Shown here one piece after another: positions 14,094 to 52,971 of a stretch of DNA of 64,000 bases (position 1 is its first letter; every line of letters begins with the position of its first letter). The position numbers were made by a program, and so were the translations under genes. The notes under the pieces are model-generated. The model worked only from the letters and a program-made list of their open reading frames with translations, was not told the origin of the DNA and did not search any database. This DNA is from an uncultured Flavobacteriaceae bacterium (lineage in GTDB: Bacteria > Bacteroidota > Bacteroidia > Flavobacteriales > Flavobacteriaceae): contig CAJQLD010000021.1 in assembly GCA_905479095.1 (NCBI GenBank), forward strand, positions 36,837 through 100,836. The letters are read 5' to 3'.

Positions 14094-14819
14094 TTATGCG
14101 GTTTTCTTTACAGCTAAGCTATAAATTACTAAACCGAAACCGATTTTGTTGATTGCATCCGCAATGTTGTATAAGACATCCATGTCTAATCCAAGGTTTG
14201 CAAAAGAAGAATACCACTGTCCATCAGCTGTACCTACTAAGTATCCTAATGGATAAATGATCCATCCAACAAGTACAAACCAACAAAGAATTTTGTGTGC
14301 TGCTAAAACATCTCCACCAGCTTCTTTAGCTAATTTTGCTGCTCCACCTAACCATATTTCGTACACGATAGCAAAGTATGCTACTGCAGAGAAAAAGCCC
14401 CAAAGAGCTGCGCTTCCTGTATAAACAGCTTCTCCTAAGTAACCTGTTACTAACATGATTACTGAAAGAACAATCATTTTAGTTAGTAATGATTTTTTAG
14501 CACCTGCTACTTTTAGTATTAAATAAAATTCAACACACATTAATGGCACCGTAAGAATCCAATCTACATAACGGAAAAACGTTGGAGACTCCATGTTTGA
14601 AGCCCAATAATCTCTCATGTAGAAATAGTGTACTGCTGCAATAAATGTGATTAAACCAGAAACTAGAACGGAAGTTCTCCATTTTTTGTCAAATTGATTT
14701 AATGATAAAAAGAAAAAGGCAGAAGCTGCCATCATTGCCATACATCCTACAAAGAATGTAAACCCTACGTAATCGGTTGGATCCATTTTGGCTACCAGAG
14801 GTAAAAATAAGTTTGTCAT
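14094..14819 (-). CDS. Proteorhodopsin, DTE proton pump, green-absorbing type
   Basis: Seven TM segments; AAVHY (His75 equivalent), RYVDWILTVPLMCVEF (D97/T101/M105/E108 equivalents), DAINKIGFG retinal lysine. Confidence 0.97.
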   Translation of the reverse strand: MTNLFLPLVAKMDPTDYVGFTFFVGCMAMMAASAFFFLSLNQFDKKWRTSVLVSGLITFIAAVHYFYMRDYWASNMESPTFFRYVDWILTVPLMCVEFYLILKVAGAKKSLLTKMIVLSVIMLVTGYLGEAVYTGSAALWGFFSAVAYFAIVYEIWLGGAAKLAKEAGGDVLAAHKILCWFVLVGWIIYPLGYLVGTADGQWYSSFANLGLDMDVLYNIADAINKIGFGLVIYSLAVKKTA

Positions 14820-14841: not shown

Positions 14842-14873
14842 TTGTTTAAACAAATATATAAAAAATTAAACTA
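14842..14873. promoter_or_regulatory. Proteorhodopsin -7 box overlapped by a candidate operator
   Basis: TATATTTG on minus strand at 14851-14858; perfect palindrome TTTGTTTAAACAAA 14841-14854; TTGTTTAA-N16-TTAAACTA inverted repeat 14842-14873. Confidence 0.55.
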
Positions 14874-14928: not shown

Positions 14929-15825
14929 ATGAAGAATGTTTTTAATTTCTCAATCGTCGCTAGCTTCATTGGACTGTGGATTACTACACATGTTCCAGAG
15001 AGTTTTGAACTTATCTTGGGATTTATTTTAATTTTTACTTTTGGGATGGTTCACGGCTCGAATGATTTATTAATAGTTAACAAACTTTTAATAAATACTA
15101 AACACTATTCAAAACTCACACTATTGACAGCTTACTTGTTTGTGGTGTCATTTGCTATTTTGATTTTTTATTGGGCGCCAGCCTTAGCAATGATTCTGTT
15201 TATGTTATTTAGTGCTTACCATTTTGGAGAGCAACATTGGGAACATCGTTTTTCTAAATTAAACTCCTATCGAAAATCAATCTTCTATTTTTCATACGGA
15301 ATGTTTATTCTGTATTTGTTGTTTGCATTTAACGACACAGGCGTGAAATCGATCGTATTTGAAATTACTAGTTATGAGATTACTCGTTTATACAGTCAAA
15401 TCGTTCTCATTGTTTTGGGAAGTATTATAGGACTTGTTTTGATAACAGAATTTCTTACGAAACGTCTTGCTATAGAGGCGATCCTTAAAGAACTATTTAC
15501 ACTAGTAGTGTTGGCTATGATTTTTTCATCCTCATCCCTTATATGGGGCTTTGCTATTTACTTCATCCTTTGGCATAGTATTCCTTCATTATTAGAACAA
15601 ATTAAATTTATATATGGCGATGTCAAAACAGTATCTGCTTTAAACTATTGTAAAGCAGCACTCCCCTATTGGATTATTTCATTGGTTGGCATGGTGATTT
15701 TATATGCGATTTTTAGTAGTGAAAAACAGTTCTATTCGCTCTTCTTTGCATTCATTGCAGCAGTCACATTTCCGCATGCGATTGTGATGGTGAAAATGTT
15801 TTCCAAAAAAAAAGCACAACCATAA
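14929..15825 (+). CDS. blh: Brp/Blh beta-carotene 15,15'-dioxygenase
   Basis: GMVHGSND, SAYHFGEQH, LWHSIPS, VTFPHA (four His iron ligands); multi-TM; divergent from proteorhodopsin. Confidence 0.95.
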   Translation: MKNVFNFSIVASFIGLWITTHVPESFELILGFILIFTFGMVHGSNDLLIVNKLLINTKHYSKLTLLTAYLFVVSFAILIFYWAPALAMILFMLFSAYHFGEQHWEHRFSKLNSYRKSIFYFSYGMFILYLLFAFNDTGVKSIVFEITSYEITRLYSQIVLIVLGSIIGLVLITEFLTKRLAIEAILKELFTLVVLAMIFSSSSLIWGFAIYFILWHSIPSLLEQIKFIYGDVKTVSALNYCKAALPYWIISLVGMVILYAIFSSEKQFYSLFFAFIAAVTFPHAIVMVKMFSKKKAQP

Positions 15826-36320: not shown

Positions 36321-37535
36321 TTATTTTTTTAACGTAAAATGGAATGTAGTTCCTTTTCCATAATCAGATTCTATCCATATATTTCCATTATAAAGATCTA
36401 TAATTTTTTTGACAATTGAAAGTCCTATTCCTGTAGAATCTTTATGATCATTTAGTGAATGGAAAATTTTGAAAATTTTATCATGGTATTTTTTTTCTAT
36501 TCCAACGCCGTTATCCTTAATTGAAAATTGATAAAACGATTTTTTTTCAGAAACGTCAATTTCTATTAAACCGTTTTTTTTATTATTAAATTTAATCGCA
36601 TTACCAATTAAGTTTTGAAACAATTGCTGAAATTTTGTTCGTTCACCAAAGACAACTGGCAATTTATTCTTAACATTAATTTTAATATGACTTGGAATAA
36701 AAATAATTTTTTTCAAGTCTTCAATAACTATATTTAAATCAACATTTAGTTTTTTAGATTCGTCCAAACTAACACTAGAATACAATAATACATCCGAAAT
36801 CAACAGCTCCATCTTTTCTAAAGTGGATTCGATATGACCAAAGTTTTGAAGACTGTTTTTATCAAATTTTCCTATATTATCTTCTTTTAGCCAACTTACT
36901 AAGGCGTAAATACTACTTAGCGGTGATTTTAAATCATGGGATACAATGTGTGCATATTCTTGAAGTTCATCATTACTCTTTCCAAGTTTCAAAAGTAACT
37001 TTTCTTTTTGGAGTTCAAGGTTTTTAATTTCAGTAATATCCCTAACAATTCCTTGTGCAGCTATGGCTTTATGGTTTTCATCATAAATGATACTTGCATT
37101 AATATGAACTAATTTTTGATCATTTGATTTTGTATTTATTTTAACTTGAAAATTTGTGATCGATCCATTATTAATTAATTTACTGTAACTTTTTTTGACT
37201 TTTTCAACCTCTGAAACATCGACGAGAGTAAAAAGATTAATATTTTCTTGATTGTTGTCATAGCCAAGCAAACTGGTTGCAGGTTCATTCATTTTTATAA
37301 CATTGCCCCTAAGATCCATAACAACATATGCATCTACTATATTTTCAAATACACCTCTCAGTTCAGATGATTTTTCAGCAATTAATTTCTCTAATTTAAA
37401 ATTAGATTTTTTTAGTTTTTGGGTAAGGTCATAGAATTCGGTAGATTTTCCTTCTAAAATTTTTTCAGCAGCTTTTCTCGCCCCTTTCTCACGTTTTAAA
37501 GCTCTTAATAAGATGCCTTCTAGTTGTTGATTCAT
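36321..37535 (-). CDS. Soluble PAS-domain sensor histidine kinase
   Basis: N-terminal coiled coil (REKGARKAAEKILE), PAS, H-box SHDLKSPL, N-box NLIGNAIKF, KDNGVGI, GIGLSIV, GKGTTF; no TM segment. Confidence 0.93.
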   Translation of the reverse strand: MNQQLEGILLRALKREKGARKAAEKILEGKSTEFYDLTQKLKKSNFKLEKLIAEKSSELRGVFENIVDAYVVMDLRGNVIKMNEPATSLLGYDNNQENINLFTLVDVSEVEKVKKSYSKLINNGSITNFQVKINTKSNDQKLVHINASIIYDENHKAIAAQGIVRDITEIKNLELQKEKLLLKLGKSNDELQEYAHIVSHDLKSPLSSIYALVSWLKEDNIGKFDKNSLQNFGHIESTLEKMELLISDVLLYSSVSLDESKKLNVDLNIVIEDLKKIIFIPSHIKINVKNKLPVVFGERTKFQQLFQNLIGNAIKFNNKKNGLIEIDVSEKKSFYQFSIKDNGVGIEKKYHDKIFKIFHSLNDHKDSTGIGLSIVKKIIDLYNGNIWIESDYGKGTTFHFTLKK

Positions 37536-40278: not shown

Positions 40279-41265
40279 GTATATCCGTAATTATTCATAA
40301 TGCAGTAATATTAGCAATAACAAGTCTTTCAAAGATTCTCTCTCCAAAGTATCTACGATTAAGCTTGTAAACAAATTCATTAAGGTATAATTGCAAGTAT
40401 TTTTTCTTAATTTTATGGTAATTACCTACAAAGTTTCTTTTTGCATTACTAATTGCAATATGTACCCATTTTAGGGTTTCTTTAGTTGTTTGTTCATTTG
40501 ATTTTTCGCTCATATGTATTTCAACGTAGTCAGCAATATTAACGTAGGAGGTGCTTTTGTCTGTAAATACAATGGTTTGCTCGTCATCAATAGCATTCTC
40601 AAGAGTATCATCTGTTCCCTCAGCCTTATGATCCTCTAATACTTTAGCTTTAAAATAGCGACATTGTCTTTCTACTTTACCTGTTTCTATATCTTCAAGA
40701 ATAGTGCTCTCTGCCATGATCATAACATTCGATTTTGTTTTACTTCCTCGTCCTGATTTTTGGGTTTTATGTTGATACTCTGAAGCTTCAATGGTAAAAT
40801 AGCCTTCATCCATTTCTATCATGCCTTCTAATGTGTAGCGGTCATCTCGCTGTCCCATGGCTTTTCGTAATTTATGAACCATTGCCCAAACTGGTTCATA
40901 GCGCTTTAAACCTAATTGGCGTTGTATTTCTTTACTCGAAAAACCCTTCTTTGTTGCCGTTAATAAGAACATGGTTTTGTACCAAATCAAAAATGATAAA
41001 TTTGAACTCTGCATTATGGTTCCGCTTCTCAAAGAGGTACGACTTCTACATTGTTTACATTCATAACTCCATTGACTCTTTATCCAATAATGAGTCGTAT
41101 TTGAACACCTTTTACAAATAACGCCTATTTTATCGCGTTCCCCTTTAAAATGAGTTCGGCAAGATTCTTCACTATCAAATTCTGCTGTAAAACTAAAAAT
41201 ATTCATACCTTTATTTTTTTTAAATATAATAAATAATTAACTGTTATTAGTATTTACGGACATAC
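40279..41265 (-). mobile_element. IS1595-family insertion sequence (~987 bp)
   Basis: Imperfect terminal inverted repeats GTATATCCGTAATTATTCATAA / GTATGTCCGTAAATACTAATAA (18/22) around a single transposase; no clean 8-bp target duplication. Confidence 0.85.
40295..41206 (-). CDS. IS1595 family transposase
   Basis: Zn ribbon CKRC...CKQC, HTH (FSSKEIQRQLG), EMDEGYF, VFTDKSTSY, YLQLYLNEFVYKLNRR. Confidence 0.92.
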   Translation of the reverse strand: MNIFSFTAEFDSEESCRTHFKGERDKIGVICKRCSNTTHYWIKSQWSYECKQCRSRTSLRSGTIMQSSNLSFLIWYKTMFLLTATKKGFSSKEIQRQLGLKRYEPVWAMVHKLRKAMGQRDDRYTLEGMIEMDEGYFTIEASEYQHKTQKSGRGSKTKSNVMIMAESTILEDIETGKVERQCRYFKAKVLEDHKAEGTDDTLENAIDDEQTIVFTDKSTSYVNIADYVEIHMSEKSNEQTTKETLKWVHIAISNAKRNFVGNYHKIKKKYLQLYLNEFVYKLNRRYFGERIFERLVIANITAL

Positions 41266-41320
41266 AAATAACATTTACTTGAATTACAATAATCCTAAAT
41301 TAAGAATAAAAATTAGATTG

Positions 41321-41328
41321 TATCTTTG
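41321..41328 (+). promoter_or_regulatory. Bacteroidota sigma-70 -7 box (TATCTTTG) for the aquaporin
   Basis: Exact TAnnTTTG match 13 bp before the ATG. Confidence 0.55.
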
Positions 41329-41341
41329 AAAAAAAAATGAA

Positions 41342-42001
41342 ATGAAAAAATACCTTTCAGAAATCATAGGAACCTTTAGCATGATTTTTTGTGGCTGTGG
41401 CGCCATGGTGATCAATGATTTTACAGGGGGTACCATTACCCATCCTGGGGTGGCCATCACATGGGGATTGATTGTCATGACGATGATTTATGCGTTTGGA
41501 GACATTTCAGGAGCGCATTTTAATCCGGCGGTGACCGTTGGGTTTGCAGTCGCTAAAAAATTCAGATGGAAAGAAGTTCCAAAATACATAGTAGCCCAAT
41601 TTACTGGCGCAATTGCCGCTTCGCTGCTCCTACTCTATCTATTTCCGGACAGTGACTTAGGAGCCACCATTCCCACTATTGAACCCTTAAAAGTATTTAT
41701 CATCGAATTGCTTCTTAGCTTTTTCTTAATGGTGGTCATTATAAATGTGTCCACTGGCAGTAAAGAAATTGGGCCTATTGCTGGGATTGCCGTCGGAAGC
41801 GTGATTCTCTTAGAAGCCATGTTTGCTGGGCCATTAACAAAAGCGTCTATGAATCCCATTCGTTCGTTAGCGCCTGCCCTAGCTTCCGGAAATTTTACCG
41901 ACTTGTGGGTGTATCTGACTGCACCATTCTTGGGGATGCTATTAGCAGTCTTTAGTTGCAAACTTGTAAAAGATGACAATTGCTGTGATGAAAAATGTTA
42001 A
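41342..42001 (+). CDS. MIP-family channel, NIP-like (AqpN-type)
   Basis: SGAHFNPAVT and ASMNPIRS boxes, six TM segments, Cys-rich tail CKLVKDDNCCDEKC. Confidence 0.9.
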   Translation: MKKYLSEIIGTFSMIFCGCGAMVINDFTGGTITHPGVAITWGLIVMTMIYAFGDISGAHFNPAVTVGFAVAKKFRWKEVPKYIVAQFTGAIAASLLLLYLFPDSDLGATIPTIEPLKVFIIELLLSFFLMVVIINVSTGSKEIGPIAGIAVGSVILLEAMFAGPLTKASMNPIRSLAPALASGNFTDLWVYLTAPFLGMLLAVFSCKLVKDDNCCDEKC

Positions 42002-42016
42002 TATTTGTTTAATTGT
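41991..42016 (+). repeat. Exact 26-bp direct repeat, copy 1
   Basis: AAAAATGTTAATATTTGTTTAATTGT, identical to 47637-47662; upstream of the TetR-like/ABC1/cryptochrome operon. Confidence 0.85.
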
Positions 42017-42068
42017 ATCTATAATATCTTAGACAAAATGTATTTTTACGCTATAAATAAAACATGTT

Positions 42069-42725
42069 ATGGCGAAAAAAAAACCTCTCACACAAAACAC
42101 ACTTGTAAAGCTTTATATGGACTATGTTTTAGAACATAACCATCCTCCAAAATCTATTTACACCTTTTCAAAATCTAACGGATTTGAAGAAGCTGATTTT
42201 TATCAGTTTTTTGCAAATTTCGAAGTTTTAGAAAGCGCTATTTTTAGTTTATTCTTTACAAACACACTTGAAACTTTAGAGACAAGTAAAGACTACCCTA
42301 CTTACGATTCTAGAAATCAATTATTGAGTTTTTACTTTACATTTTTCGAGAACCTAACCGCCAACAGAAGTTATGTGGTCTATGCATTAAACGAAAGTTC
42401 TAATCAACTCGAAAATTTAAAAAAATTAAAAGGCTTACGTTCAAAGTTCTTGAATTATATCGATCAATTAGATATTGAAGTATTGCAAATCAAAAACAAG
42501 CAATTAGAGCAAATTAAAGATAATGTCGTTCAAGAAACCTATTGGATTCAACTGATGCTAACCTTAAAGTTTTGGTTAGATGATACGTCTACTTCCTTTG
42601 AAAAAACAGATATTTTTATTGAAAAATCAATCAATGCTAGCTTTGATCTCATTAACATTTCCCCATTAAAAAGTTTCGTTGATTTCGGCAAATTTTTGAT
42701 TAAGGAAAAAATCAGCATGAACTAA
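42069..42725 (+). CDS. TetR-like protein (C-terminal ligand domain, COQ9-like fold)
   Basis: Helical N-terminus (PKSIYTFSKSNGFEEADFYQFF) and FWLDDTSTSFEKTDIFIEKS C-terminus recalled from flavobacterial TetR_C proteins. Confidence 0.65.
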   Translation: MAKKKPLTQNTLVKLYMDYVLEHNHPPKSIYTFSKSNGFEEADFYQFFANFEVLESAIFSLFFTNTLETLETSKDYPTYDSRNQLLSFYFTFFENLTANRSYVVYALNESSNQLENLKKLKGLRSKFLNYIDQLDIEVLQIKNKQLEQIKDNVVQETYWIQLMLTLKFWLDDTSTSFEKTDIFIEKSINASFDLINISPLKSFVDFGKFLIKEKISMN

Positions 42726-42726
42726 T

Positions 42727-44037
42727 ATGAAGTCCATCGACAAAATACCAACCTCAAAAATACAACGTGCCGGGAAACTTGTTTCTACGGGTGCAAAGGT
42801 TGGGGTGAATTATTTAAAATACTATGGTGAGAAAATCACTAAATCAGAAGCCGTTGCAAAAGAAAATCTCAATAAAAATAATGCCGAAGATATTTATTCG
42901 GGATTAAAACAACTCAAAGGAAGTGCTTTAAAAGTAGCGCAAATGTTGAGCATGGAGAAAAGCATTTTACCGCAAGCTTACGTAGATAAATTTTCATTAG
43001 CTCAATTTTCTGTTCCGCCACTGTCGCCTCCACTAGTGATCAAGACCTTTAAAAAATATTTTGGACAACACCCCAACGAAATTTTTGACGAATTTGATTC
43101 TGAATCCGTCAATGCTGCCAGTATTGGACAAGTCCACAAAGCAGAAAAAGATGGCAAAAAATTGGCTGTAAAAATCCAGTATCCAGGCGTGGCTGATAGT
43201 ATCAAATCGGACTTATCTCTGGTGAAACCGATTGCCATAAAAATGTTTAACATTAAAGGGACAGATTCTGACAAATACTTTCAAGAAGTAGAAGATAAAT
43301 TGGTAGAAGAAACCAATTACGATCTTGAAATCTCTCAAAGTAAAGAAATAGCAAAAGCCTGCGTTCACATTCCTAATTTATTATTTCCAGAATATTATGA
43401 TGATTATTCTTCGGATCGCATCATCACAATGGATTTTATGAAAGGGGAGCATCTTTCAGAATTTGCAAAATATAATACCGATACGCAGAAGGCGAATCAA
43501 CTTGGCCAAGCGCTTTGGGATTTTTATATGTTTCAAATTCATACCCTAAAAAAAGTACATGCAGATCCACATCCTGGAAATTTTCTGATTAATGAGGATG
43601 CACAGTTGATTGCTTTAGATTTTGGTTGTATGAAATCTATACCAGATGAGTTTTACATTCCTTACTTTGAATTATCGGATAAAAAAATTATTGATACTCC
43701 CAAATTATTTAAGGAGAAGTTGTTTGAGTTAGAAATTTTAACTCCAACAGATACTCCCGAAGAATTATCATTTTTCACCGCGATGTTTCATGATCTATTG
43801 AGTGTGTTTACGTTGCCATTTCACGAAGCAGTGTTTGACTTTTCTAACTCAGAGTTTTTTAATAAAATTGGAGATTTAGCCGATCGTTACAGCAAAAGCA
43901 CAGAGCTCAGGAAGTTTAATGGAAATCGTGGGTCAAAACATTTTATATATATCAATCGAACCTTTTTTGGACTCTATAATTTGATGTTTGATTTAAAAGC
44001 ATCATCTGTAAAAATTAACCAATTCAACAATTACTAA
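42727..44037 (+). CDS. ABC1/AarF/UbiB (COQ8-like) atypical kinase
   Basis: LKVAQ (KxGQ-like), AASIGQVH, AVKIQYPG, HADPHPGNF, LDFG. Confidence 0.92.
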   Translation: MKSIDKIPTSKIQRAGKLVSTGAKVGVNYLKYYGEKITKSEAVAKENLNKNNAEDIYSGLKQLKGSALKVAQMLSMEKSILPQAYVDKFSLAQFSVPPLSPPLVIKTFKKYFGQHPNEIFDEFDSESVNAASIGQVHKAEKDGKKLAVKIQYPGVADSIKSDLSLVKPIAIKMFNIKGTDSDKYFQEVEDKLVEETNYDLEISQSKEIAKACVHIPNLLFPEYYDDYSSDRIITMDFMKGEHLSEFAKYNTDTQKANQLGQALWDFYMFQIHTLKKVHADPHPGNFLINEDAQLIALDFGCMKSIPDEFYIPYFELSDKKIIDTPKLFKEKLFELEILTPTDTPEELSFFTAMFHDLLSVFTLPFHEAVFDFSNSEFFNKIGDLADRYSKSTELRKFNGNRGSKHFIYINRTFFGLYNLMFDLKASSVKINQFNNY

Positions 44038-44658
44038 ATGTTACACTTAAAACGCCAAGATTTTGATGATTTAGACCATGTTTACAGAATAAACATGATG
44101 AATAGTTGTTCGGGATTTAAGTCGGCAAATCTCATCGGAACCAAATCAAATGACGGCGTTCCAAACGTAGCGGTTTTTAGTTCCGTAACGCACTTAGGAT
44201 CCAACCCTCCCCTTCTTGGAATCGTATTTAGACCCGTAAGTGATGTGCCCAGAAATACGTACGAAAACATCAAAGAAACAGGCCAATTCACAGTGAATCA
44301 CATCCATTTAGATATTATTGAGCAGGCACACCATACCTCTGCTAAATATGATAAAGGTATCTCAGAATTTGACATTACAAAACTTGAAGAAGAATATAAA
44401 AACGATTGGCATGCACCATTTGTAAAAGGCGCGCCCATTCAAATGGCACTCACCTTTTGTGAGGAATACATCATCAAAGCCAACAATACGGTCCAACTTA
44501 TTGCCGAGATAAAAGATTTATATATCAAAGATGATATTGTAGAAGCAGATGGATTTGTCAATTTAGCCAAAGCAAATATTGTGGCCATTAACGGCTTAGA
44601 CGGCTATGCTCTGCCATCGCTTAAACAACGAATCGAATACCAACGTCCAAAAAAATAA
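44038..44658 (+). CDS. Flavin reductase family (DIM6/NTAB) protein
   Basis: NVAVFSSVTHLGSNPPLLG, RNTYENIKETGQFTVNH. Confidence 0.85.
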   Translation: MLHLKRQDFDDLDHVYRINMMNSCSGFKSANLIGTKSNDGVPNVAVFSSVTHLGSNPPLLGIVFRPVSDVPRNTYENIKETGQFTVNHIHLDIIEQAHHTSAKYDKGISEFDITKLEEEYKNDWHAPFVKGAPIQMALTFCEEYIIKANNTVQLIAEIKDLYIKDDIVEADGFVNLAKANIVAINGLDGYALPSLKQRIEYQRPKK

Positions 44659-44671
44659 AGATTCATTCACA

Positions 44672-44812
44672 TTGAAAAAACAGTTTCTCCCTAGCAAAAT
44701 TTGCATTCAATGCAATCGACCCTTTACATGGCGAAAGAAATGGGAGAAAAATTGGGAATCCGTCAAATATTGTAGTAAAAAATGCAGCAGTCTTCGAAAA
44801 AAACAAGCTTAG
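44672..44812 (+). CDS. DUF2256 small zinc-finger protein
   Basis: LPSKICIQCNRPFTWRKKWEKNWESVKYCSKKC; probable TTG start 44672. Confidence 0.85.
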   Translation: MKKQFLPSKICIQCNRPFTWRKKWEKNWESVKYCSKKCSSLRKKQA

Positions 44813-46092
44813 TTTGGTTTGGAAATGATTTAAGAACAGTCGATAACTACGTCCTTAATGCAGCCGTAGAATCGTCTGAAAAAGTCATCGGTGTTTATTT
44901 TTTAAATCCAAAATTTTTCATACCCACTAAATATGGGTTTAAAAAAACAGCCGTATTTCGCGTTCAATTTCTTCTTGAAACATTAGAAGATCTTAAACAA
45001 CAATTACAACACCTCAATATTTCGTTAATTGTTTTACACGAAACTCCAGAAAACAGTCTAAATAAACTAATTTCAGAGTATGAAATTACAAGCGTATATC
45101 GTCAAAATGAATGGACAACTGAGGAAGTGAAAACTTATCAATCGAGCCTCAATACAATTTCAAAAACGGTTGATTTTAAATCTTATTACAATCAATTTTT
45201 ATACCACCCAGAAGATCTTCATTTTGAAGCAAAGGATACGCCTCGAGTATTTACTCATTTTAGAAAAGCCATTGAGAAATCGGTTAAAATTCGTCCTTTA
45301 GTGGTTCCTAAACAAATGCCCAAAGAAAATCTTTTAGAAAACACACCTAACGTCCCGACTCTTGATTTTTTAGGCTATCAAACGCCTCATCAAGTTCCGG
45401 AATCGGCGTTTCCATTTAAAGGTGGAGAAACACAAGCAAACCAGCGAATTGAATCCTATGTTTTTGAAAGTAAAGCCTTAGGTATTTATAAAAAAACTAG
45501 GAATGGATTGATAGGTATCAATTATAGTTCGAAATTTTCTGCTTGGCTGGCAAATGGGAGTCTTTCCCCTCGAACTATCTACTGGAATGTTAAAAAATTT
45601 GAAGCTACTTACGGATCAAATGACTCAACGTATTGGATGATTTTTGAATTAATTTGGCGCGATTATTTCAAATTTATTTCGTTAAAACATGGCTCTCATA
45701 TTTTTAAAATCGGAGGGATTCTAGAAAAAACATATGATTGGAATCAGGACGCTTCGCTTGTAGACCAATGGATCAACGGCACCACTTCAAATGACTTTGT
45801 AAATGCAAATATGCTTGAATTACAAAAAACAGGTTGGATGAGTAATCGAGGTCGGCAAAATGTCGCTTCCTATTTTTCCAAAACACTTCAATTGGATTGG
45901 CGCATTGGTGCGGCCTACTTTGAAGCACTTTTAATCGATTATGATGTACATAGTAATTATGGCAATTGGATGTACGTCTCAGGGGTCGGAAATGACCCTC
46001 GAAATCGAACGTTTAATGTCAAACTTCAAGCCGAGCGCTATGACTCCAATGGAGCGTATCGCAAAAAATGGCTTCAAACAAAATTATTTTAA
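44782..46092 (+). CDS. Cryptochrome DASH
   Basis: VWFGNDLRTVDN, FKGGETQA, YKKTRNGLIG..YSSKFSAWLANG, ELIWRDYF, GWMSNRGRQNVASY, GVGNDPR. Confidence 0.92.
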   Translation: MQQSSKKTSLVWFGNDLRTVDNYVLNAAVESSEKVIGVYFLNPKFFIPTKYGFKKTAVFRVQFLLETLEDLKQQLQHLNISLIVLHETPENSLNKLISEYEITSVYRQNEWTTEEVKTYQSSLNTISKTVDFKSYYNQFLYHPEDLHFEAKDTPRVFTHFRKAIEKSVKIRPLVVPKQMPKENLLENTPNVPTLDFLGYQTPHQVPESAFPFKGGETQANQRIESYVFESKALGIYKKTRNGLIGINYSSKFSAWLANGSLSPRTIYWNVKKFEATYGSNDSTYWMIFELIWRDYFKFISLKHGSHIFKIGGILEKTYDWNQDASLVDQWINGTTSNDFVNANMLELQKTGWMSNRGRQNVASYFSKTLQLDWRIGAAYFEALLIDYDVHSNYGNWMYVSGVGNDPRNRTFNVKLQAERYDSNGAYRKKWLQTKLF

Positions 46093-47625
46093 ATGAAAAC
46101 ACTACGTCTTATACTAGGAGATCAACTCAACGCACAACATTCATGGTATACATCTGTTACAGAATCTACCGTGTATTGTATGTTTGAAATGCGGCAAGAA
46201 ACCGATTATGTCAAACACCACATTCAAAAAGTGGTTGGATTTTTCGCGGCCATGCGAGCGTTTTCAGAAGAACTAAAATCGCAAGGGCATACCGTGATTT
46301 ATGTTACCTTAGACGAGGCTTCAAATCATCAGGACTTAAGAGAAAACATAACGGCTCTGATCGCTTCTCAGAGTGTTGAGAAATTTGAATACCAATCGCC
46401 CGATGAATACCGGTTGGACGAGCAACTTAAAACTATTTGCAAGTTGGTATCCATTCCAACTCAAGAATTTGATACGGAACATTTCTATACCACTCGCGAT
46501 GAACTTTCGATATTCTTTGAAGGAAAAAAGCAGTTGTTAATGGAACGCTTTTATCGATATATGCGTAAAAAACATCACATTTTAATGGAAGGCGAACAGC
46601 CTGAAGGTGGTGAATGGAACTATGATAAAAGCAATCGAAATAAATGGAAAGGATCTCCAGGAATTCCACCCTTTATTCAGTTTAACACCAACGTAGAATC
46701 GATTTTAAACGCCATTCAATCGTCTGGAGTTGAAACCATTGGGCGTTTCAAAGAAACCACGTTTTCGTATCCAGTAAATAGGGCGCAATCGTTGCAACAA
46801 CTCGAGTATTTTAATCAGCATTTATTAGTTCATTTTGGGGATTACCAAGATGCATTACATACCGATGAAGTGTATCTGTTTCACTCTCGGTTATCGTTTG
46901 CAATGAACCTTAAAATTATTAGCCCAAAAGAAATTATAACGTCTGTTTTATCCCATTATCGATCTCATAGTGATGAAATTTCTATTTCACAAGTTGAAGG
47001 ATTTATCCGACAAGTGATTGGATGGCGAGAATATATGCGTGGGATGTATTGGGCACAAATGCCGGAGTATAAAACTTTAAATACGCTCGATAATCATCAG
47101 CCAATTCCTGAATTCTTTTGGACTGGAGAGACCAAAATGAATTGCTTAAACAAAACCATTAATAACTCATTAGACAATGCCTATGCACATCACATTCAAC
47201 GTTTGATGATTACGGGGAATTATTTGCTATTGACCCAAACAAACCCCGATGACGTGGATGCTTGGTATTTAGGTATTTATATCGATGCCTTAGAATGGGT
47301 TCAACTCCCCAATACTCGGGGGATGAGTCAGTTTGCCGATGGTGGACTGATTGCGACTAAACCTTATGTTTCATCTGGGAGCTATATCAATAAAATGAGT
47401 AATTATTGTGGTGACTGTCAGTATAATGTCAAAGAGCGCTTGGGAGAAAATGCCTGTCCATTTAATAGCTTATACTGGAATTTTCTGGATGATAAGCGAT
47501 CTCAATTGGCCAGTAATTTTCGTATGAAGATGATGTATTCTGTATTGAATAAATTTTCTACTGAGGAACTCATTTCGATGAAATTGAGAGCTTCCAATAT
47601 AATGGAAACTCCAGAGAATTTTTAG
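46093..47625 (+). CDS. FeS-BCP/CryPro cryptochrome-photolyase (bacterial (6-4) photolyase type)
   Basis: LILGDQL, HHIQK, QVIGWREY, YAHHIQRLM; four FeS Cys (KMNC, NYCGDC, ACPF). Confidence 0.92.
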   Translation: MKTLRLILGDQLNAQHSWYTSVTESTVYCMFEMRQETDYVKHHIQKVVGFFAAMRAFSEELKSQGHTVIYVTLDEASNHQDLRENITALIASQSVEKFEYQSPDEYRLDEQLKTICKLVSIPTQEFDTEHFYTTRDELSIFFEGKKQLLMERFYRYMRKKHHILMEGEQPEGGEWNYDKSNRNKWKGSPGIPPFIQFNTNVESILNAIQSSGVETIGRFKETTFSYPVNRAQSLQQLEYFNQHLLVHFGDYQDALHTDEVYLFHSRLSFAMNLKIISPKEIITSVLSHYRSHSDEISISQVEGFIRQVIGWREYMRGMYWAQMPEYKTLNTLDNHQPIPEFFWTGETKMNCLNKTINNSLDNAYAHHIQRLMITGNYLLLTQTNPDDVDAWYLGIYIDALEWVQLPNTRGMSQFADGGLIATKPYVSSGSYINKMSNYCGDCQYNVKERLGENACPFNSLYWNFLDDKRSQLASNFRMKMMYSVLNKFSTEELISMKLRASNIMETPENF

Positions 47626-47636
47626 TCTTTTTGATA

Positions 47637-47662
47637 AAAAATGTTAATATTTGTTTAATTGT
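47637..47662 (+). repeat. Exact 26-bp direct repeat, copy 2
   Basis: Identical to 41991-42016; upstream of the folE/tspO/phr operon. Confidence 0.85.
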
Positions 47663-47712
47663 TAATGTAAATGACTCAACATTATGTATGTTTGATTACT
47701 TAAACATTACTA

Positions 47713-48141
47713 TTGGTTCTAGATACAACATACTACAACAAGGAACATCGACAAATATTTGAAAATTTTGTTGGCAAACCTTACACTTTCTTTGAAGCTA
47801 TAAAACGCCGTGGCGTTGGCTCAAAACGGATGATTGTCGACAAAGTAAGTGTAAACTTAAATCCAATTTTAAATACGGTTTCCGATCTAAATTATGCTAA
47901 TATTGAAATGCGAAAAAAAGGCATTTTAATTCATATCACTAAAGGACAACAGAATTTCACATGGGCCATCCCATTTTATCATTTGGTAGTATACAAAACA
48001 GATGGGATGAGTATTCATGCTCAAGGAAAGTTCATCCACTTCAAAAAGTCGAGAAATTTCTATGAAAATAAGAATTTTTTAAGATCTTTATTGGAAGAAA
48101 AAATACAGTTTGACGAACAATATAAACTTCCTGTATCATGA
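47713..48141 (+). CDS. Hypothetical protein
   Basis: 142-aa ORF, first gene of the operon, stop overlaps next start; no motif recognised. Confidence 0.7.
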   Translation: MVLDTTYYNKEHRQIFENFVGKPYTFFEAIKRRGVGSKRMIVDKVSVNLNPILNTVSDLNYANIEMRKKGILIHITKGQQNFTWAIPFYHLVVYKTDGMSIHAQGKFIHFKKSRNFYENKNFLRSLLEEKIQFDEQYKLPVS

Positions 48142-48410
48142 ATTTTAATACTGTAGAATTGGATCGAATTATAGAAATGGCTTGGGAAGATCGCACGACT
48201 TTTGAAGCGATTGAACATCAATTCAAATTGAGTGAACAAGAAGTAATCAAAATTATGCGTACCTACATGAAACCCAAAAGTTTCCGATTGTGGCGAGCAC
48301 GGGTTCAAGGTAGAAAAACAAAACACCAAAAATTAAGATCATTTGAATCTGGAAGATTTAAATGCACGAGACAACGACAAATAACTCATAACAAAATATC
48401 AAAGCGTTAA
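48138..48410 (+). CDS. TIGR03643/DUF2805 family protein
   Basis: RIIEMAWEDRTTFEAI, SFRLWRARVQGRKTKH. Confidence 0.88.
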   Translation: MNFNTVELDRIIEMAWEDRTTFEAIEHQFKLSEQEVIKIMRTYMKPKSFRLWRARVQGRKTKHQKLRSFESGRFKCTRQRQITHNKISKR

Positions 48411-48418
48411 AATAAATT

Positions 48419-49108
48419 ATGAATAATCAAGTTACTGAAGATGAAAAGGATCTGTTAAATGGATTTTCGAACCATGAAATTGGTGATGACCACCTTTTTA
48501 CGGGCTTAGAAACGCCAATGAAGAAAGACGCTTTTAAAGTATCCGACCAAGAAAAGAAAAAGAAAATTGCTGTTTTATTTGAAGAAATAATGGATGTTTT
48601 AGGATTAGACCTTACAGACGATTCTCTTAAGGGAACTCCTGAACGTGTTGCAAAAATGTATATTGATGAAATATTTTCTGGATTAAACTCTAAAAATAAA
48701 CCAAAAGTTGCGTTATTTGAAAATAAATATCGATACAACCAGATGTTGGTTGAAAAAGACATTACTTTTTATTCGAACTGTGAACATCACTTTGTTCCCA
48801 TTATTGGGAAAGCGCATGTTGCCTACATTTCATCAGGAAAAGTAATTGGTTTATCAAAATTGAACCGAATTGTACAGTATTACGCCAAAAGGCCACAAGT
48901 TCAAGAACGATTGACCAATCAAATTGCAGAAGAATTAAAAGGCATATTAGGAACCGAAGATGTAGCTGTCATTATTGACGCGAAGCATTTATGTGTTTCC
49001 TCTAGAGGAATTAAAGACGATACCTCTGCAACTGTTACCGCTTTTTATGGTGGTGCATTTAATACCTCAGCAAAAATTGCTGAATTACAAAATTATTTAA
49101 AACTATAA
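48419..49108 (+). CDS. folE: GTP cyclohydrolase I
   Basis: TPERVAKMY, SNCEHHFVP, GLSKLNRIV, RPQVQERLT, HLCVSSRG. Confidence 0.97.
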   Translation: MNNQVTEDEKDLLNGFSNHEIGDDHLFTGLETPMKKDAFKVSDQEKKKKIAVLFEEIMDVLGLDLTDDSLKGTPERVAKMYIDEIFSGLNSKNKPKVALFENKYRYNQMLVEKDITFYSNCEHHFVPIIGKAHVAYISSGKVIGLSKLNRIVQYYAKRPQVQERLTNQIAEELKGILGTEDVAVIIDAKHLCVSSRGIKDDTSATVTAFYGGAFNTSAKIAELQNYLKL

Positions 49109-49110
49109 CT

Positions 49111-49335
49111 ATGGATGTTATTAAACAAGCTGAAGCTTTTGAACTCAAACCACTCACATTTAAAACGACGAGTGAGCGAATCGAAGCATCAAGAGAAGTA
49201 AAAGGATTAATATTGGGAATCAACGAGATTTATAAAACCAGTCAAGATCCTAAATTAATGGATCAAATGAAACGCTTAACTGCGATAAAACAAAAAATTG
49301 AAAAACGTTTAAAAGGGCGTCCACTAAGAGCATGA
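49111..49335 (+). CDS. Small hypothetical protein
   Basis: 74-aa helical ORF tightly packed in the operon. Confidence 0.65.
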   Translation: MDVIKQAEAFELKPLTFKTTSERIEASREVKGLILGINEIYKTSQDPKLMDQMKRLTAIKQKIEKRLKGRPLRA

Positions 49336-50015
49336 AAAAAATTATTATTATTGGGGGGAGTAAAGGCATTGGAAAAGCAATTACCGAAAATCTTCTTAAG
49401 GAGTATGAAGTCGTCAACATCAGCCGAACCCCACCAGATTTCCAACATGCTAATTTATCGCACCATACTTGTGATATATTAACGGATGAATTACCAGAAA
49501 TTGAAGCAGCGGATAGCTTAATCTACTGTCCAGGAAGCATCAACTTAAAACCTTTTAATAGGCTAAAATTAGATGATTTTAGAACGGATTTTGAAATCAA
49601 TGTGATTGGTGCCGTTAAATCAATTCAAGCCTATACAAAAGCTCTGTCACAGAGTGAATCGGCTTCAATTGTGTTGTTTAGTACGGTTGCCACAAAATTA
49701 GGAATGCCTTTTCATGCAAGTGTCGCCACGGCAAAATCCGCAGTTGAAGGACTCACAAAATCAGTGGCTGCTGACTTAGCACCTACCATTCGAGTGAATG
49801 CAATTGCGCCAACGATTACAGACACGGAATTAGCAGCTAAATTTCTTAGAAATGAACGTATGATTGAAAGTACAATTCAGCGTCATCCTCTCAAAAAATA
49901 TTTAGCACCTTCAGAAGTCGCTGCAATGGCTGAATACCTAATTTCGGATGTGTCTAAATCAATTTCAGGACAAATATTTAACTTAGATTGCGGGATTGTG
50001 TCTCTAAAATTATAA
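49332..50015 (+). CDS. Short-chain dehydrogenase/reductase, atypical active site
   Basis: GGSKGIG nucleotide motif, RVNAIAP; YxxxK appears as VATAK. Confidence 0.85.
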   Translation: MKKIIIIGGSKGIGKAITENLLKEYEVVNISRTPPDFQHANLSHHTCDILTDELPEIEAADSLIYCPGSINLKPFNRLKLDDFRTDFEINVIGAVKSIQAYTKALSQSESASIVLFSTVATKLGMPFHASVATAKSAVEGLTKSVAADLAPTIRVNAIAPTITDTELAAKFLRNERMIESTIQRHPLKKYLAPSEVAAMAEYLISDVSKSISGQIFNLDCGIVSLKL

Positions 50016-50016
50016 A

Positions 50017-50571
50017 ATGAGATTATTAATAGTAGTGGTTATCATAGCTGTAATAACATTTTCAATTCAATCTAAATCGCAATCAAAAATTAACCAAAGT
50101 ATGTCTTTATATAACATTGAAATAAATAGTATTGATGGCAGTCCCATCAATCTAAACGAGTACAAAGGAAAACACCTTCTGTTTGTGAATGTTGCATCTG
50201 AATGTGGCTTTACTGGACAATATGAAGACCTTCAAAAACTATACGATACGTATCAAGATAAGTTGATGGTAATAGGAGTTCCTTGCAATCAATTTGGTGG
50301 CCAAGAACCTGGGAATTCTGATGAGATTCAATCCTTTTGTCAAAAAAACTACGGTGTTACATTTTTAATGACTGAGAAAATTGATGTTAATGGAGATTCG
50401 CAACACCCACTCTATCAATGGTTAACTAAAAAAGATATGAATGGTGTTAAAAGCACTTCCGTTAAATGGAATTTTCAAAAGTATTTGATCGATGGAAACG
50501 GACAGTTTGTAGATTACTTTTATTCAATCACAAAACCATTAAGTAGTAAAATAACCCGCCAATTTAAATAA
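50017..50571 (+). CDS. Glutathione peroxidase family protein
   Basis: FVNVASECGFT, VPCNQFGGQEPG, KWNFQKYLI; N-terminal hydrophobic segment. Confidence 0.93.
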   Translation: MRLLIVVVIIAVITFSIQSKSQSKINQSMSLYNIEINSIDGSPINLNEYKGKHLLFVNVASECGFTGQYEDLQKLYDTYQDKLMVIGVPCNQFGGQEPGNSDEIQSFCQKNYGVTFLMTEKIDVNGDSQHPLYQWLTKKDMNGVKSTSVKWNFQKYLIDGNGQFVDYFYSITKPLSSKITRQFK

Positions 50572-50574
50572 ATC

Positions 50575-50742
50575 ATGTTTGGAATTTTTAAGAAAAAATC
50601 ACCGATTGAAAAACTTCAGGAACGTTACAAAAAATTAATGTCAGAATGGCATCAACTTTCATCTACAGATCGCTCTGCGAGTGACGCTAAATATGCAGAA
50701 GCACAGTCGATTTTAAATGAAATCGAAAATCTTAGAGATTAA
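50575..50742 (+). CDS. Small protein, Lacal_2735-like (missing from ORF track)
   Basis: Manually translated 55 aa MFGIFKKKSPIEKLQERYKKLMSEWHQLSSTDRSASDAKYAEAQSILNEIENLRD; fills the gap exactly between gpx and tspO. Confidence 0.85.
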   Translation: MFGIFKKKSPIEKLQERYKKLMSEWHQLSSTDRSASDAKYAEAQSILNEIENLRD

Positions 50743-51204
50743 ATGAAATTTTACAAAGGATTAATCCTTTTTATAATCATTAATTTTAGTGCACTTGGTA
50801 TTGGAACTTGGCTCATGAACGGTGGTCCACAATCAGATTGGTACATTCTTCTTAATAAAGCGCCTTGGACGCCTCATGGATGGGTTTTTGGTGTGGCCTG
50901 GAGTAGTATTATGCTGCTGTTCTCTGTGTATATGGCGTATCTCATTCAAACAGACCGATCTCAAAAAGTAATTCTATTATTTAGTTTTCAATTTGTATTA
51001 AACGTGTTCTGGAACTACCTGTTTTTCAACCAACAACTCATCACCTTAGGCTTGCTTAATATTCTTTTTTTAACCTTACTGATGTTCTATTTTCTTGTGG
51101 CGTTTAAACATTCGCTTAAAAACAAAACTTTTTATGTCCTCCCCTATTGCATCTGGTTATTAATAGCGACTTCTTTAAATTTATACATCGCATTATACAA
51201 TTAA
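50743..51204 (+). CDS. tspO: TspO/MBR tryptophan-rich sensory protein
   Basis: WYILLNKAPWTPHGWVFGVAW, LNVFWNYLFF, PYCIWLLIATSLN. Confidence 0.92.
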   Translation: MKFYKGLILFIIINFSALGIGTWLMNGGPQSDWYILLNKAPWTPHGWVFGVAWSSIMLLFSVYMAYLIQTDRSQKVILLFSFQFVLNVFWNYLFFNQQLITLGLLNILFLTLLMFYFLVAFKHSLKNKTFYVLPYCIWLLIATSLNLYIALYN

Positions 51205-51205
51205 A

Positions 51206-51667
51206 ATGAAATTATACCGATTACATAAAAAGCAAAATTTCCCTATTAGTGTGGAAACAGCTTGGGAATTTTTATCAAATCCAAAAAATCTAAAAACCAT
51301 TACGCCAGAGTATATGAGTTTTGATATCATATCGGGGGCCGATCGTCCCATGTATGCAGGACAAATCATCCAATATATTGTAACACCAATTTTAGGAATC
51401 AAAACCAAATGGGTCACTGAAATTACCCAAGTTAAAGACCAACACTATTTTGTAGATGAACAACGGTATGGACCCTACGCGCTTTGGCATCACAAGCATT
51501 TTATTAAAGCAATTGATGGCGGTGTAGAAATGGAAGATATCATTGACTATAAAGTGCCACTTGGTTGGCTTGGGCAATTGGTACACCCGTTTATTGTGAA
51601 GCCTAAATTAGAAGAGATTTTTGCCCACAGACAAAAGAAATTAATCGAATTATTTGGAGTGTACTAA
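51206..51667 (+). CDS. SRPBCC family protein
   Basis: WEFLSNPKNLKTITP, FVDEQRYGPYALWHHKH. Confidence 0.88.
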   Translation: MKLYRLHKKQNFPISVETAWEFLSNPKNLKTITPEYMSFDIISGADRPMYAGQIIQYIVTPILGIKTKWVTEITQVKDQHYFVDEQRYGPYALWHHKHFIKAIDGGVEMEDIIDYKVPLGWLGQLVHPFIVKPKLEEIFAHRQKKLIELFGVY

Positions 51668-52971
51668 TGAAAAAAAAAGTTTCCCTATTTTGGTTTAGAA
51701 GAGATTTAAGACTGCACGATAACCACGGATTATTTGAAGCTTTACAGGCCAAGGAAGCGGTACTTCCTATTTTCATTTTTGATCCTGCTATTTTGGAATC
51801 CTTACCTAAAAATGACGCAAGAGTTGAATTTATTCACCACCAGCTAACTGAAATCAATGCAAGTTTACAAACACACGGAAGTGGTGTGGCTGTTTACCAT
51901 GGATCACCAGAAGTTATATTAGATAAAATTACAAATGAGTTTGATGTGAGTGCCGTGTATTACAATCATGATTATGAGCCCTATGCACTTGAAAGAGACG
52001 CCGCTATTTCAAAATTATTAGAATCAAAATCGATCGCTTTTAAATCCTACAAAGATCAGGTTATATTTGAGAAAAATCAAATTACAAAAGACGATGGACT
52101 GCCATATAAAGTCTATACACCCTTCTCTAAAAAATGGTTAGCAGCCTTTAATTCAGAAGACTGTAGGGCGTTTGATTCGGAGAACTTATTGGACCATACA
52201 CATAAATCAAAGTCATTGAATTGGGTCGATTTGAATGCTATAGGATTTGAACCCAATCCCGTTAAAGTTGCGCCCTACAAGGTTGAAAAAGAGATTATAG
52301 AGAATTATGAAGCCACACGAAATTTCCCTGCAGTTGATGGGACTTCAAAATTAGGGCCTCACTTACGATTTGGAACCGTGAGTGTTCGGGAAATCGTCGC
52401 TAAAGCGATTCGACATGAAAATATCACCTTTTTAAAAGAATTAATCTGGCGTGAGTTTTTTATGCAGATTTTATGGCATTTTCCGCATACCGTTACACGG
52501 AGTTTTAAACCACAATATGATGCCATTAAATGGCGTAATGATCCCGAAGAATTTAAAAAATGGTGTGATGGTACTACCGGCTATCCACTAGTAGATGCTG
52601 GCATGCGAGAGTTAAATCAAACTGGATTTATGCACAACCGCGTTCGTATGTTGGTGGGTAGTTTTTTGTGTAAGCACCTTTTGATCGATTGGCGTTTGGG
52701 TGAAGCTTATTTTGCAGAAAAGCTCCATGACTTTGAACTTTCAAGCAATGTAAGTAATTGGCAATGGGTGGCTGGATGTGGGGTTGATGCTGCGCCGTAT
52801 TTTAGAATTTTCAATCCGACGACACAAGTCACTAATTTCGACAAAGCGCATACATACATTAAAAAATGGGTGCCAGAGTATCAGGAGTTAACGTATCCTA
52901 CGCCAATGGTGGATCATAAATTTGCTAGAGAACGTTGCCTCACAACGTATAAAGAAGCCCTAGCGAAGTAG
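51667..52971 (+). CDS. phr: CPD (deoxyribodipyrimidine) photolyase
   Basis: FWFRRDLRLHDN, YKVYTPF, TSKLGPHLRFG, ELIWREF, GTTGYPLVDAGMR, MHNRVRM, DAAPYFRIFNP. Confidence 0.94.
   Translation: MKKKVSLFWFRRDLRLHDNHGLFEALQAKEAVLPIFIFDPAILESLPKNDARVEFIHHQLTEINASLQTHGSGVAVYHGSPEVILDKITNEFDVSAVYYNHDYEPYALERDAAISKLLESKSIAFKSYKDQVIFEKNQITKDDGLPYKVYTPFSKKWLAAFNSEDCRAFDSENLLDHTHKSKSLNWVDLNAIGFEPNPVKVAPYKVEKEIIENYEATRNFPAVDGTSKLGPHLRFGTVSVREIVAKAIRHENITFLKELIWREFFMQILWHFPHTVTRSFKPQYDAIKWRNDPEEFKKWCDGTTGYPLVDAGMRELNQTGFMHNRVRMLVGSFLCKHLLIDWRLGEAYFAEKLHDFELSSNVSNWQWVAGCGVDAAPYFRIFNPTTQVTNFDKAHTYIKKWVPEYQELTYPTPMVDHKFARERCLTTYKEALAK

Follow-up and report, generated by a model that had tools for sequence, protein, structure and literature searches.

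A repeat shared by two photoprotection operons of a Flavobacteriaceae genome is probably part of a CarH/LitR-type operator

The window analysed here, a stretch of 64,000 nucleotides from the genome of an uncultured Flavobacteriaceae bacterium, contains two neighbouring photoprotection operons on the plus strand. Operon 1 (42069–47625) starts with a TetR_C_23 protein, followed by an ABC1/UbiB-type kinase, a flavin reductase, a photolyase/Cry-DASH-like protein and DPRP, a photolyase-related protein. Operon 2 (47713–52971) encodes a 142-aa protein with a TTG start, a DUF2805 protein, GTP cyclohydrolase I, a 74-aa protein, an SDR, glutathione peroxidase, TspO, an SRPBCC protein and a CPD photolyase. 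The 142-aa protein was considered as a regulator and rejected as a DNA binder, since it has no Pfam match and its only lead is to a PH-like fold. The third cry-like gene is intra-operonic in most species, and a comparison of its orthologous upstream sites was uninformative. Elsewhere in the window lie the divergent genes for proteorhodopsin (14094–14819, minus strand) and blh (14929–15825, plus strand).

Both operons are preceded by the same 26 bp, at 41991–42016 and 47637–47662, on the plus strand and with no mismatch, as the first-pass annotation of this DNA had described. Its further observations are borne out as well: 52 and 50 nt separate the copies from the first start codons of the operons, at 42069 (ATG) and 47713 (TTG), and copy 1 overlaps the stop codon of an aquaporin gene, the TAA at 41999–42001 of the MIP aquaporin ORF (41342–42001) lying inside copy 1. 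The in-register similarity between the two upstream regions spans 62 nt with 76% identity. No further match with up to three mismatches occurs in the window (dinucleotide shuffles with any such match: 0 of 100), and the genome-wide search that had been proposed as a check found just the two copies in the whole 2.23-Mb assembly with up to four mismatches allowed. Candidate additional copies with up to seven mismatches are weak; the best of them (five mismatches, 37230–37255) falls within a 404-aa ORF and was dropped. Matches to the 26-mer with three mismatches recur in relatives.

We found that the 26-mer does not stand alone: it belongs to an inverted repeat found throughout the family, TGTTTAAC-N14-GTTAAACA, and holds two of its three TnnACA-type half-sites. 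Upstream of operon 1, half-site a (41996–42001, minus strand) reads TGTTAA on the plus strand and TTAACA on the minus strand and is intact in all genomes of the genus, and half-site b (42006–42013, minus strand, TGTTTAAT as compared with the family consensus TGTTTAAC) forms the left arm of the inverted repeat and includes TGTTTA (42006–42011), the complement of TAAACA; these are the two minus-strand TnnACA hexamers, 10 bp apart, of the earlier annotation. The right arm, half-site c (42028–42035, plus strand), reads CTTAGACA here and ATTAAACA in most of the genus, contains TAGACA, and lies outside the 26-mer, 14 bp 3′ of arm b and adjoining a Bacteroidota-type −7 box. At operon 2, copy 2 provides half-sites a (47642–47647) and b (47652–47659), while half-site c (47674–47681, plus strand, ACTCAACA) includes TCAACA. 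Together, b and c make up the inverted repeat TGTTTAAY-N14-RTTAAACA, in which the half-site centres are 22 bp, i.e. two helical turns, apart. The 26-mer, which had been taken for the shared operator, would thus be its upstream (distal) part and not the whole. Likewise, the assignment to CarH-type TnnACA repeats with one-turn spacing stands for the TnnACA sites but not for the arrangement: half-sites a and b do follow each other in tandem, but with a spacing of 10 bp, c is inverted and the spacer has no conserved fourth repeat, so that an inverted repeat with an extra site takes the place of tandem, same-orientation repeats with an 11-bp period. A third operator of the same family (14843–14872, TGTTTAAA-N14-ATTAAACT) lies between proteorhodopsin and blh.

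The sigma-A promoters of Bacteroidota combine a −33 element, TTTG, with a −7 element, TAnnTTTG. A predicted −7 box, conserved in genus and family, lies 5 nt 3′ of arm c on the plus strand at operon 1 (42041–42048, TATTTTTA, 7 of 8 positions of TAnnTTTG) and at operon 2 (47687–47694, TATGTTTG, a perfect match), in both cases at the distance from a short leader that is expected of sigma-A promoters, about 10–20 nt. The predicted −7 box of proteorhodopsin (14851–14858, minus strand, TATATTTG, perfect) is situated within the spacer of the third operator, and a −7-like box is found within the spacer or shortly downstream in 80 of 102 distinct repeats. The near −7 box previously noted within the 26-mer, AATATTTG, is present, but the conserved downstream TAnnTTTG is the likelier −7 element. 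No −33 TTTG was found at its expected place some 19 nt upstream of the −7 box, where the variable 14-bp spacer lies; the TTTG within the 26-mer is 33 nt away from the box. A sigma-70 promoter scan, which is ill-suited to Bacteroidota, did not outperform shuffled sequences, and no terminator was detected. Public metatranscriptome contigs (four runs with the locus) span both intergenic regions with flat depth and neither show a start nor prove transcription.

Is this arrangement maintained beyond a single genome? The first-pass annotation had made its proposal depend on conservation of the motif upstream of orthologous operons, and this is what we found. In 18 of 18 same-genus genomes that have the operons, a 21-bp core with 0–1 mismatch precedes both of them, whereas the flanks, the spacer and the leader are variable. 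The same layout, with an invariant spacer length of 14 bp, recurs upstream of TetR_C_23 orthologs (55–64% amino acid identity) in about 65 other genera. Outside the genus, the repeat is also located at the carH-crtI junction, in the proteorhodopsin/blh intergenic region, before other rhodopsins and before both types of photolyase operon. Across marine Flavobacteriaceae, the repeat precedes genes that protect from light or harvest it; each genome contains few sites, all of them at light-related genes. Half-site a is mostly limited to the two operon types and missing from the crtI and rhodopsin sites.

Which protein reads this operator-promoter? The comparative evidence favours CarH, a B12-dependent photoreceptor repressor. 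The genome under study (G000) encodes a canonical CarH outside the window, on contig C16, where its gene is the first of carH-crtI-crtB. This protein has a MerR-type HTH (PF13411, E 3.8e-12; PF00376, E 5e-8) and a four-helix-bundle B12-binding_2 domain (PF02607, E 3.4e-7), while PF02310 did not reach an E of 1. Its best PDB match is Thermus thermophilus CarH (5C8D/3WHP, E 5e-14), with which the Wx9EH motif of the four-helix bundle and the ExHxxG motif of the Rossmann-type B12 domain pair in an alignment of residues 5–226. When we tabulated the repeat over 110 genera at up to one mismatch (reversed-pattern control near 0), 80 of the 86 genomes that encode an intact CarH ortholog had it, as against 5 of the 24 that do not (odds ratio 51, p = 6e-12 in a Fisher test whose significance is overstated by the relatedness of the genomes). 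The association persists among genomes with the TetR gene (p = 6e-6) and among those lacking it (p = 7e-5), the genomes being again related. The exceptions are six genera with an intact CarH ortholog that lack the canonical repeat, and five without an ortholog that have one to three matches. At least 15 genomes have the repeat no farther than about 100 bp from carH; no canonical repeat was found upstream of carH itself in the genus studied here. Genomes with only a distant class of CarH (33–39% identity) carry a co-varied repeat, TGTCTAA-N16-TTAGACA, before the carH-like gene and the TetR operon, and this version occurs in class-1 genomes at noise level only. The earlier suggestion of a promoter-operator shared by both operons and read by a light-responsive regulator from outside the window is thus supported comparatively.

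We consider it probable, at roughly 0.7, that the 26-mer represents the distal two thirds of a CarH/LitR-type operator that overlaps the predicted promoters of both operons and confers repression in the dark and induction in the light. The data establish sequence conservation, regulon content, operator–regulator co-occurrence, adjacency and co-variation; CarH binding, the sign of regulation, its dependence on light and B12, and the transcription start are inferred. By analogy with characterised CarH proteins, an AdoCbl-bound CarH oligomer would occupy the half-sites in the dark and exclude RNA polymerase. In the light, AdoCbl would be photolysed and the oligomer would disassemble, leading to derepression of both operons and, likewise, of proteorhodopsin/blh and, in other genera, of crtI.

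CarH had initially been rejected because the box survives in CarH-less genomes. Five genomes of the genus lack a working carH, which is deleted in G008, G016 and G018 and decayed in G001 and G019, and their 21-mers show at most one change per site. In G001, the carH remnant (79% identity, 51 gaps) stands against unchanged boxes, so that part of the box seems to be constrained without CarH; G099, a member of another genus with a carH pseudogene, retains the box as well. We reinstated CarH because of the family-wide tabulation, the co-varied operator of the second CarH class and the decay of the TnnACA cores, which in the genus are intact in 72 of 72 cases where carH is intact versus 25 of 30 where it is deleted or a pseudogene (p = 0.0017, with related genomes). 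We tentatively speculate, while regarding it as rather unlikely, that the box outlives its presumed reader in this Hel1_33_131-type genus and in G099 through a second, CarH-independent reader, either another factor or an obligatory promoter role, and that the operator would have been re-wired and not abandoned.

A rival explanation, to which we assign a low probability, is that another transcription factor co-distributing with carH reads the box, or that a second factor reads it alongside or instead of CarH in the genus. Besides the near-constancy of the 21-mer where carH is deleted or long decayed, and in G099, it can draw on the near-restriction of half-site a to the two operon types and on these CarH-less genomes, which have no other MerR-type protein save one conserved small one. 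However, no candidate factor was found, and the adjacency of the repeat to carH, its co-variation with CarH class and the core decay in CarH-less genomes favour CarH itself. That the box is only a promoter element, i.e. an A/T-rich UP-like or sigma recognition sequence with no dedicated regulator, appears very unlikely. It would fit the A/T-richness of the box, its location some 62 to 40 nt ahead of the predicted start, its persistence after carH loss and the −7-like boxes that accompany most distinct repeats, but not the confinement to a handful of light-related sites per genome, nor the strict inverted symmetry around a spacer of fixed length. Moreover, the register to the −7 box differs, the box being within the spacer at proteorhodopsin and crtI and downstream at operons 1 and 2, and the repeat is missing in CarH-less genomes even where the same operon is present.

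We give still less credence to the alternative of the first-pass annotation, in which the TetR-like first gene of operon 1 controls its own operon and operon 2. The box is found immediately upstream of this gene in the same roughly 65 genera, in many genera half-sites a and b combine into a palindrome, GTTAAA-N5-TTTAAC, whose 17 bp are a TetR-like size, and an N-terminal HTH-like region of the protein is conserved. Nevertheless, 19 genera have the repeat without the gene, CarH-less genomes that possess the gene have no repeat upstream of it, the orthologs in G107, G056 and G132 lack an upstream repeat, and the gene makes no difference when CarH is controlled for (p = 0.14 and 0.61). The protein has no TetR_N Pfam match at E up to 1, and a weak COQ9-like match, together with the neighbouring ABC1/COQ8-type kinase, is suggestive of a protein that binds lipids or quinones. 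Finally, a functionless relic of local duplication, gene conversion or a small mobile repeat, as the exact identity over 26 bp of sites 5.6 kb apart might evoke, is hardly credible given only two genomic copies, both in positions conserved in 18 species, and a consensus form that is family-wide.

How does the predicted CarH operator compare with known systems? Characterised CarH reads TnnACA-containing repeats over promoter elements, in the form of three to four tandem 11-bp direct repeats, nnnnTnnACAn (PMC9304148). As in the CarH/LitR operators of T. thermophilus, Bacillus megaterium and myxobacteria, several TnnACA half-sites are phased at about one helical turn or multiples thereof, the operator is predicted to overlap core promoter elements, and the regulator combines a MerR HTH with a B12-binding module bearing Wx9EH and ExHxxG and is linked to crt genes. 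Unlike those tandem 11-bp operators, the one described here is an 8-bp inverted repeat with an invariant 14-bp spacer and an extra site 10 bp upstream. The CarA/CarH operator at Pcrt of Myxococcus xanthus spans about 55 bp, including the −35 region, and contains both inverted and TnnACA repeats (PMC9304148). It shares with ours the combination of inverted repeats and TnnACA sites, but differs in sequence, phylum and promoter type (sigma-70 −35/−10 there, Bacteroidota −33/−7 here), and in contrast to M. xanthus there is no evidence here for a CarS-type antirepressor. The predicted regulon is wider than carotenogenesis and takes in rhodopsins, blh, three photolyase/cryptochrome types, FolE, glutathione peroxidase and TspO. 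In the class II LitR regulons of Pseudomonas (phrB, folE, cfa), a LitR-family regulator jointly controls photolyase and GTP cyclohydrolase I; this likeness, to another LitR class in another phylum, is one of gene content. A transcriptomic study of Dokdonia sp. MED134 saw light induction of proteorhodopsin, crtB/I, a MerR regulator, a class I photolyase and a Cry-DASH/DPRP/photolyase operon (bioRxiv 10.1101/2023.12.25.573297), the same gene set as here, reported at the level of expression with no cis element or regulator–operator link described.

Transcriptomes of marine Flavobacteriia have repeatedly shown that light induces proteorhodopsin, carotenoid and photolyase/cryptochrome genes. Our searches of the accessible literature returned no match to the motif strings, no described operator of a flavobacterial light regulon and no cis element or regulator–operator link for this induction. 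A 30-bp inverted repeat that tracks CarH over more than 100 genera provides a testable model in which one B12-dependent photoreceptor would govern phototrophy, pigment and DNA-repair genes, and which predicts regulon members by sequence alone. The comparative data also suggest that CarH can read inverted besides tandem half-sites, and the two operator/regulator specificity classes may be of use for building optogenetic tools. A streamlined genus in which carH has been lost repeatedly supplies natural knock-outs. For the abundant bloom-associated flavobacteria, the model would link the response to light to the supply of vitamin B12.

The first-pass annotation had placed an exact 26-bp repeat before two photoprotection operons, and the window sequence bears this out: the copies lie at 41991-42016 and 47637-47662 and end 52 nt (operon 1) and 50 nt (operon 2) before the first start codon, copy 1 overlapping the stop codon (TAA) of the gene for a MIP aquaporin. 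An IS1595-family transposase gene (40295-41206) is located just 5' of this aquaporin gene, which adjoins operon 1. Operon 1 (42069-47625) encodes a TetR_C_23 protein, an ABC1/UbiB-type kinase, a flavin reductase, a photolyase/Cry-DASH-like protein and a DPRP photolyase-related protein; operon 2 (47713-52971) encodes a 142-aa protein, DUF2805, GTP cyclohydrolase I, a 74-aa protein, an SDR, glutathione peroxidase, TspO, an SRPBCC protein and a CPD photolyase. The 142-aa gene (47713-48141) has a TTG start in the source genome and ATG in some relatives and other genera; its product has no Pfam family, and the protein atlas gives only a lead to a PH-like fold. At up to three mismatches, no further match to the 26-mer was found in the window or in 100 shuffles, and the genome-wide search that had been proposed, run on the whole source assembly (2.23 Mb, 36.5% GC, 90% complete; the window is on contig C21), recovered only these two copies at up to four mismatches.

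Conservation before the orthologous operons was also found. A 21-mer core, AATGTTAATATTTGTTTAATT, precedes both operons with 0-1 mismatch in 18 same-genus genomes, and variation is seen in its flanks, in the next 14 nt and in the leaders. After the core, in fixed register, comes a second conserved block with an AAACA/GAACA element plus a Bacteroidota-type -7 box, the latter predicted at 42041-42048 (TATTTTTA, operon 1) and 47687-47694 (TATGTTTG, operon 2) and conserved in the genus. Orthologs of the TetR_C_23 protein with 55-64% identity occur in ~65 other Flavobacteriaceae genera, including Olleya, Mariniflexile, Arenibacter, Psychroserpens, Lacinutrix and Winogradskyella, and upstream of them the same layout is more sharply defined: (T)GTTAAATTTTGTTTAAC and GTTAAACATTTTGTATCTTTA, separated by 14 A/T-rich bases that vary. 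Invariant is an 8-bp inverted repeat, TGTTTAAC-N14-GTTAAACA, with an extra GTTAAA 10 bp upstream at many sites. It follows that the 26-mer consists of the extra site (a) and the left arm (b), and that the box, previously read as a shared promoter-operator, is only part of one; the operator reading is kept, with the right arm (c) outside the 26-mer on the plus strand at 42028-42035 (CTTAGACA, operon 1) and 47674-47681 (ACTCAACA, operon 2). All three half-sites contain TnnACA; a and b carry it on the minus strand, c on the plus strand.

Which protein reads this operator? A light-responsive regulator encoded outside the window and the TetR-like product of the first gene had both been considered, and co-occurrence across genera favours a CarH/LitR-type protein over the TetR-like one. 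The source genome encodes one CarH-like protein (299 aa; contig C16, locus L085 9161-10060, minus strand) that combines a MerR HTH with a B12-binding_2 domain; its closest match in the PDB, T. thermophilus CarH, aligns with it at the Wx9EH and ExHxxG motifs. A B12-dependent enzyme is also encoded. The carH gene heads a carH-crtI-crtB-(149 aa)-lycopene cyclase cluster just after two tRNA genes. Across 110 genomes, one per genus and each at least 95% complete, the repeat was present in 80 and absent from 6 genomes with an intact ortholog of this protein (class 1), and present in 5 and absent from 19 in which CarH was absent, a pseudogene or only a 33-39% identical paralog (odds ratio 51, Fisher p = 6e-12, a significance overstated by the relatedness of the genomes). 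For the TetR_C_23 homolog, the corresponding counts were 66 genomes with and 10 without the repeat where the homolog is present, and 19 and 15 where it is absent; an effect of this gene could be seen in neither CarH class (p = 0.14 and 0.61), and on this distribution we rejected its product as the reader. The CarH effect holds in genomes with (p = 6e-6) and without (p = 7e-5) the TetR gene, kinship again overstating the significance of both. No repeat was found upstream of the TetR gene in two genomes with a TetR ortholog and no CarH ortholog (G107, G056), nor in G132.

The TetR_C_23 protein itself (gene within 42069-44037) gave no TetR_N Pfam match, carries two conserved glutamates at the expected recognition-helix position and shows a faint COQ9 match (E 0.15). 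Its gene is followed by the ABC1/UbiB (COQ8-like) kinase gene in 64/66 loci, a pairing that resembles eukaryotic COQ9/COQ8. These features suggest that the protein handles a lipid or quinone instead of acting as a regulator.

The CarH association extends to gene neighbourhood: in 15 genomes or more, no more than ~100 bp separate the repeat from carH, and in Arenibacter carH is directly upstream of the TetR operon. Genomes with only the distant CarH class, 33-39% identical to the source-genome protein (G088, G144, G083, G023; loci L286, L287, L292, L295, L297, L299), carry a co-varied repeat, TGTCTAA-N16-TTAGACA, before the carH-like gene and the TetR operon; in class-1 genomes this variant was found at noise level only. 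The two CarH classes and their repeats would make a natural pair of operator/regulator specificities. We consider it probable (about 0.7) that the operator is read by a CarH/LitR-type regulator.

The genus has lost carH more than once (loci L212-L229). It is cleanly deleted before an intact crtI in G008, G016 and G018, with different deletion extents and the last ~20 bp left; in G019 it is a frameshifted pseudogene, and in G001 it is heavily decayed (79% identity, 51 gaps), as is crtI. Besides one conserved small protein, no other MerR-type proteins were found in these carH-less genomes. In all of them the 21-mer nevertheless survives, no site differing by more than one change, which exceeds the expectation of neutral decay at least in G001; the box is also kept in G099, a genome of another genus with a carH pseudogene. 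Elsewhere in the carH-less genus genomes no canonical repeats were found, and most carH-bearing congeners have some. Where carH is intact, the two operators retain every TnnACA core (72/72), whereas 5/30 are disrupted where it is lost, two at the arm b TGT and three at arm c (p = 0.0017, overstated since the genomes are related). We read this as a likely relaxation of constraint on the CarH contacts after carH loss, and the residual constraint on the rest of the box as perhaps due to a role in the promoter or to another reader.

In five other genomes, a scan at up to one mismatch returned a few sites per genome: upstream of the TetR/ABC1/flavin-reductase/cry operon and of the 142-aa/DUF2805/FolE-type operon, in the 44 bp where carH and crtI meet, across the whole gap between divergent proteorhodopsin and blh genes, and before another rhodopsin. 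A third operator in the window (14843-14872) likewise lies between divergent proteorhodopsin and blh genes, with a perfect proteorhodopsin -7 box in its spacer; its right arm is one A shorter in the G015/G016/G018/G008 group (ATTAACTT). A weaker site of the family precedes a third cry/photolyase-family gene on contig C23 and is present in the source genome, G010 and G009 only. At this locus (L196 942-6171) there follow genes for an amine-oxidase-like flavoprotein, a PAS hybrid histidine kinase, whose PAS domain is PAS_9 and possibly LOV-type, and a single-domain receiver. A 1-mismatch repeat at C23:40642-40671 (L196 ~10643), kept in G006 and G010, precedes the gene of an 884-aa T9SS-sorted BNR/sortilin-like protein, an unexpected regulon candidate. 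Contigs from four runs of a single marine metatranscriptome study cover 88-97% of 41300-49300 and bridge intergenic regions at a flat depth that possibly reflects read-through or DNA carry-over; they yielded no indication of where transcription begins.

Because the register between repeat and -7-like box differs between targets, the box lying inside the spacer at some and just downstream of the repeat at others, a promoter-occluding repressor would fit better than a fixed-geometry activator. The repeats bound by the CarH proteins characterised so far are 11 bp long, contain TnnACA, overlap promoter elements and are markedly plastic in number (PMC9304148). Known CarH/LitR operators are tandem 11-bp direct repeats; here that arrangement is missing, since a 14-bp spacer separates half-sites in inverted orientation, and the element would resemble a CarH/LitR operator in its working, minus one defining feature. 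We found no description of it in the searchable literature. Light-induced genes of Dokdonia sp. MED134 include those for proteorhodopsin, CrtB/I, a MerR regulator and a photolyase as well as a Cry-DASH/DPRP/photolyase operon (bioRxiv 10.1101/2023.12.25.573297), and the set carrying the repeat here matches them. In the dark, AdoCbl-CarH would bind a, b and c, covering a region from ~-57 to -18 relative to the predicted start; as this stretch would lie beside the -33 region and directly against the -7 box, both operons would be repressed, and light would release CarH. The regulon would also be wider than in the known systems, taking in rhodopsins, blh, photolyases/cryptochromes, FolE and oxidative-stress genes.
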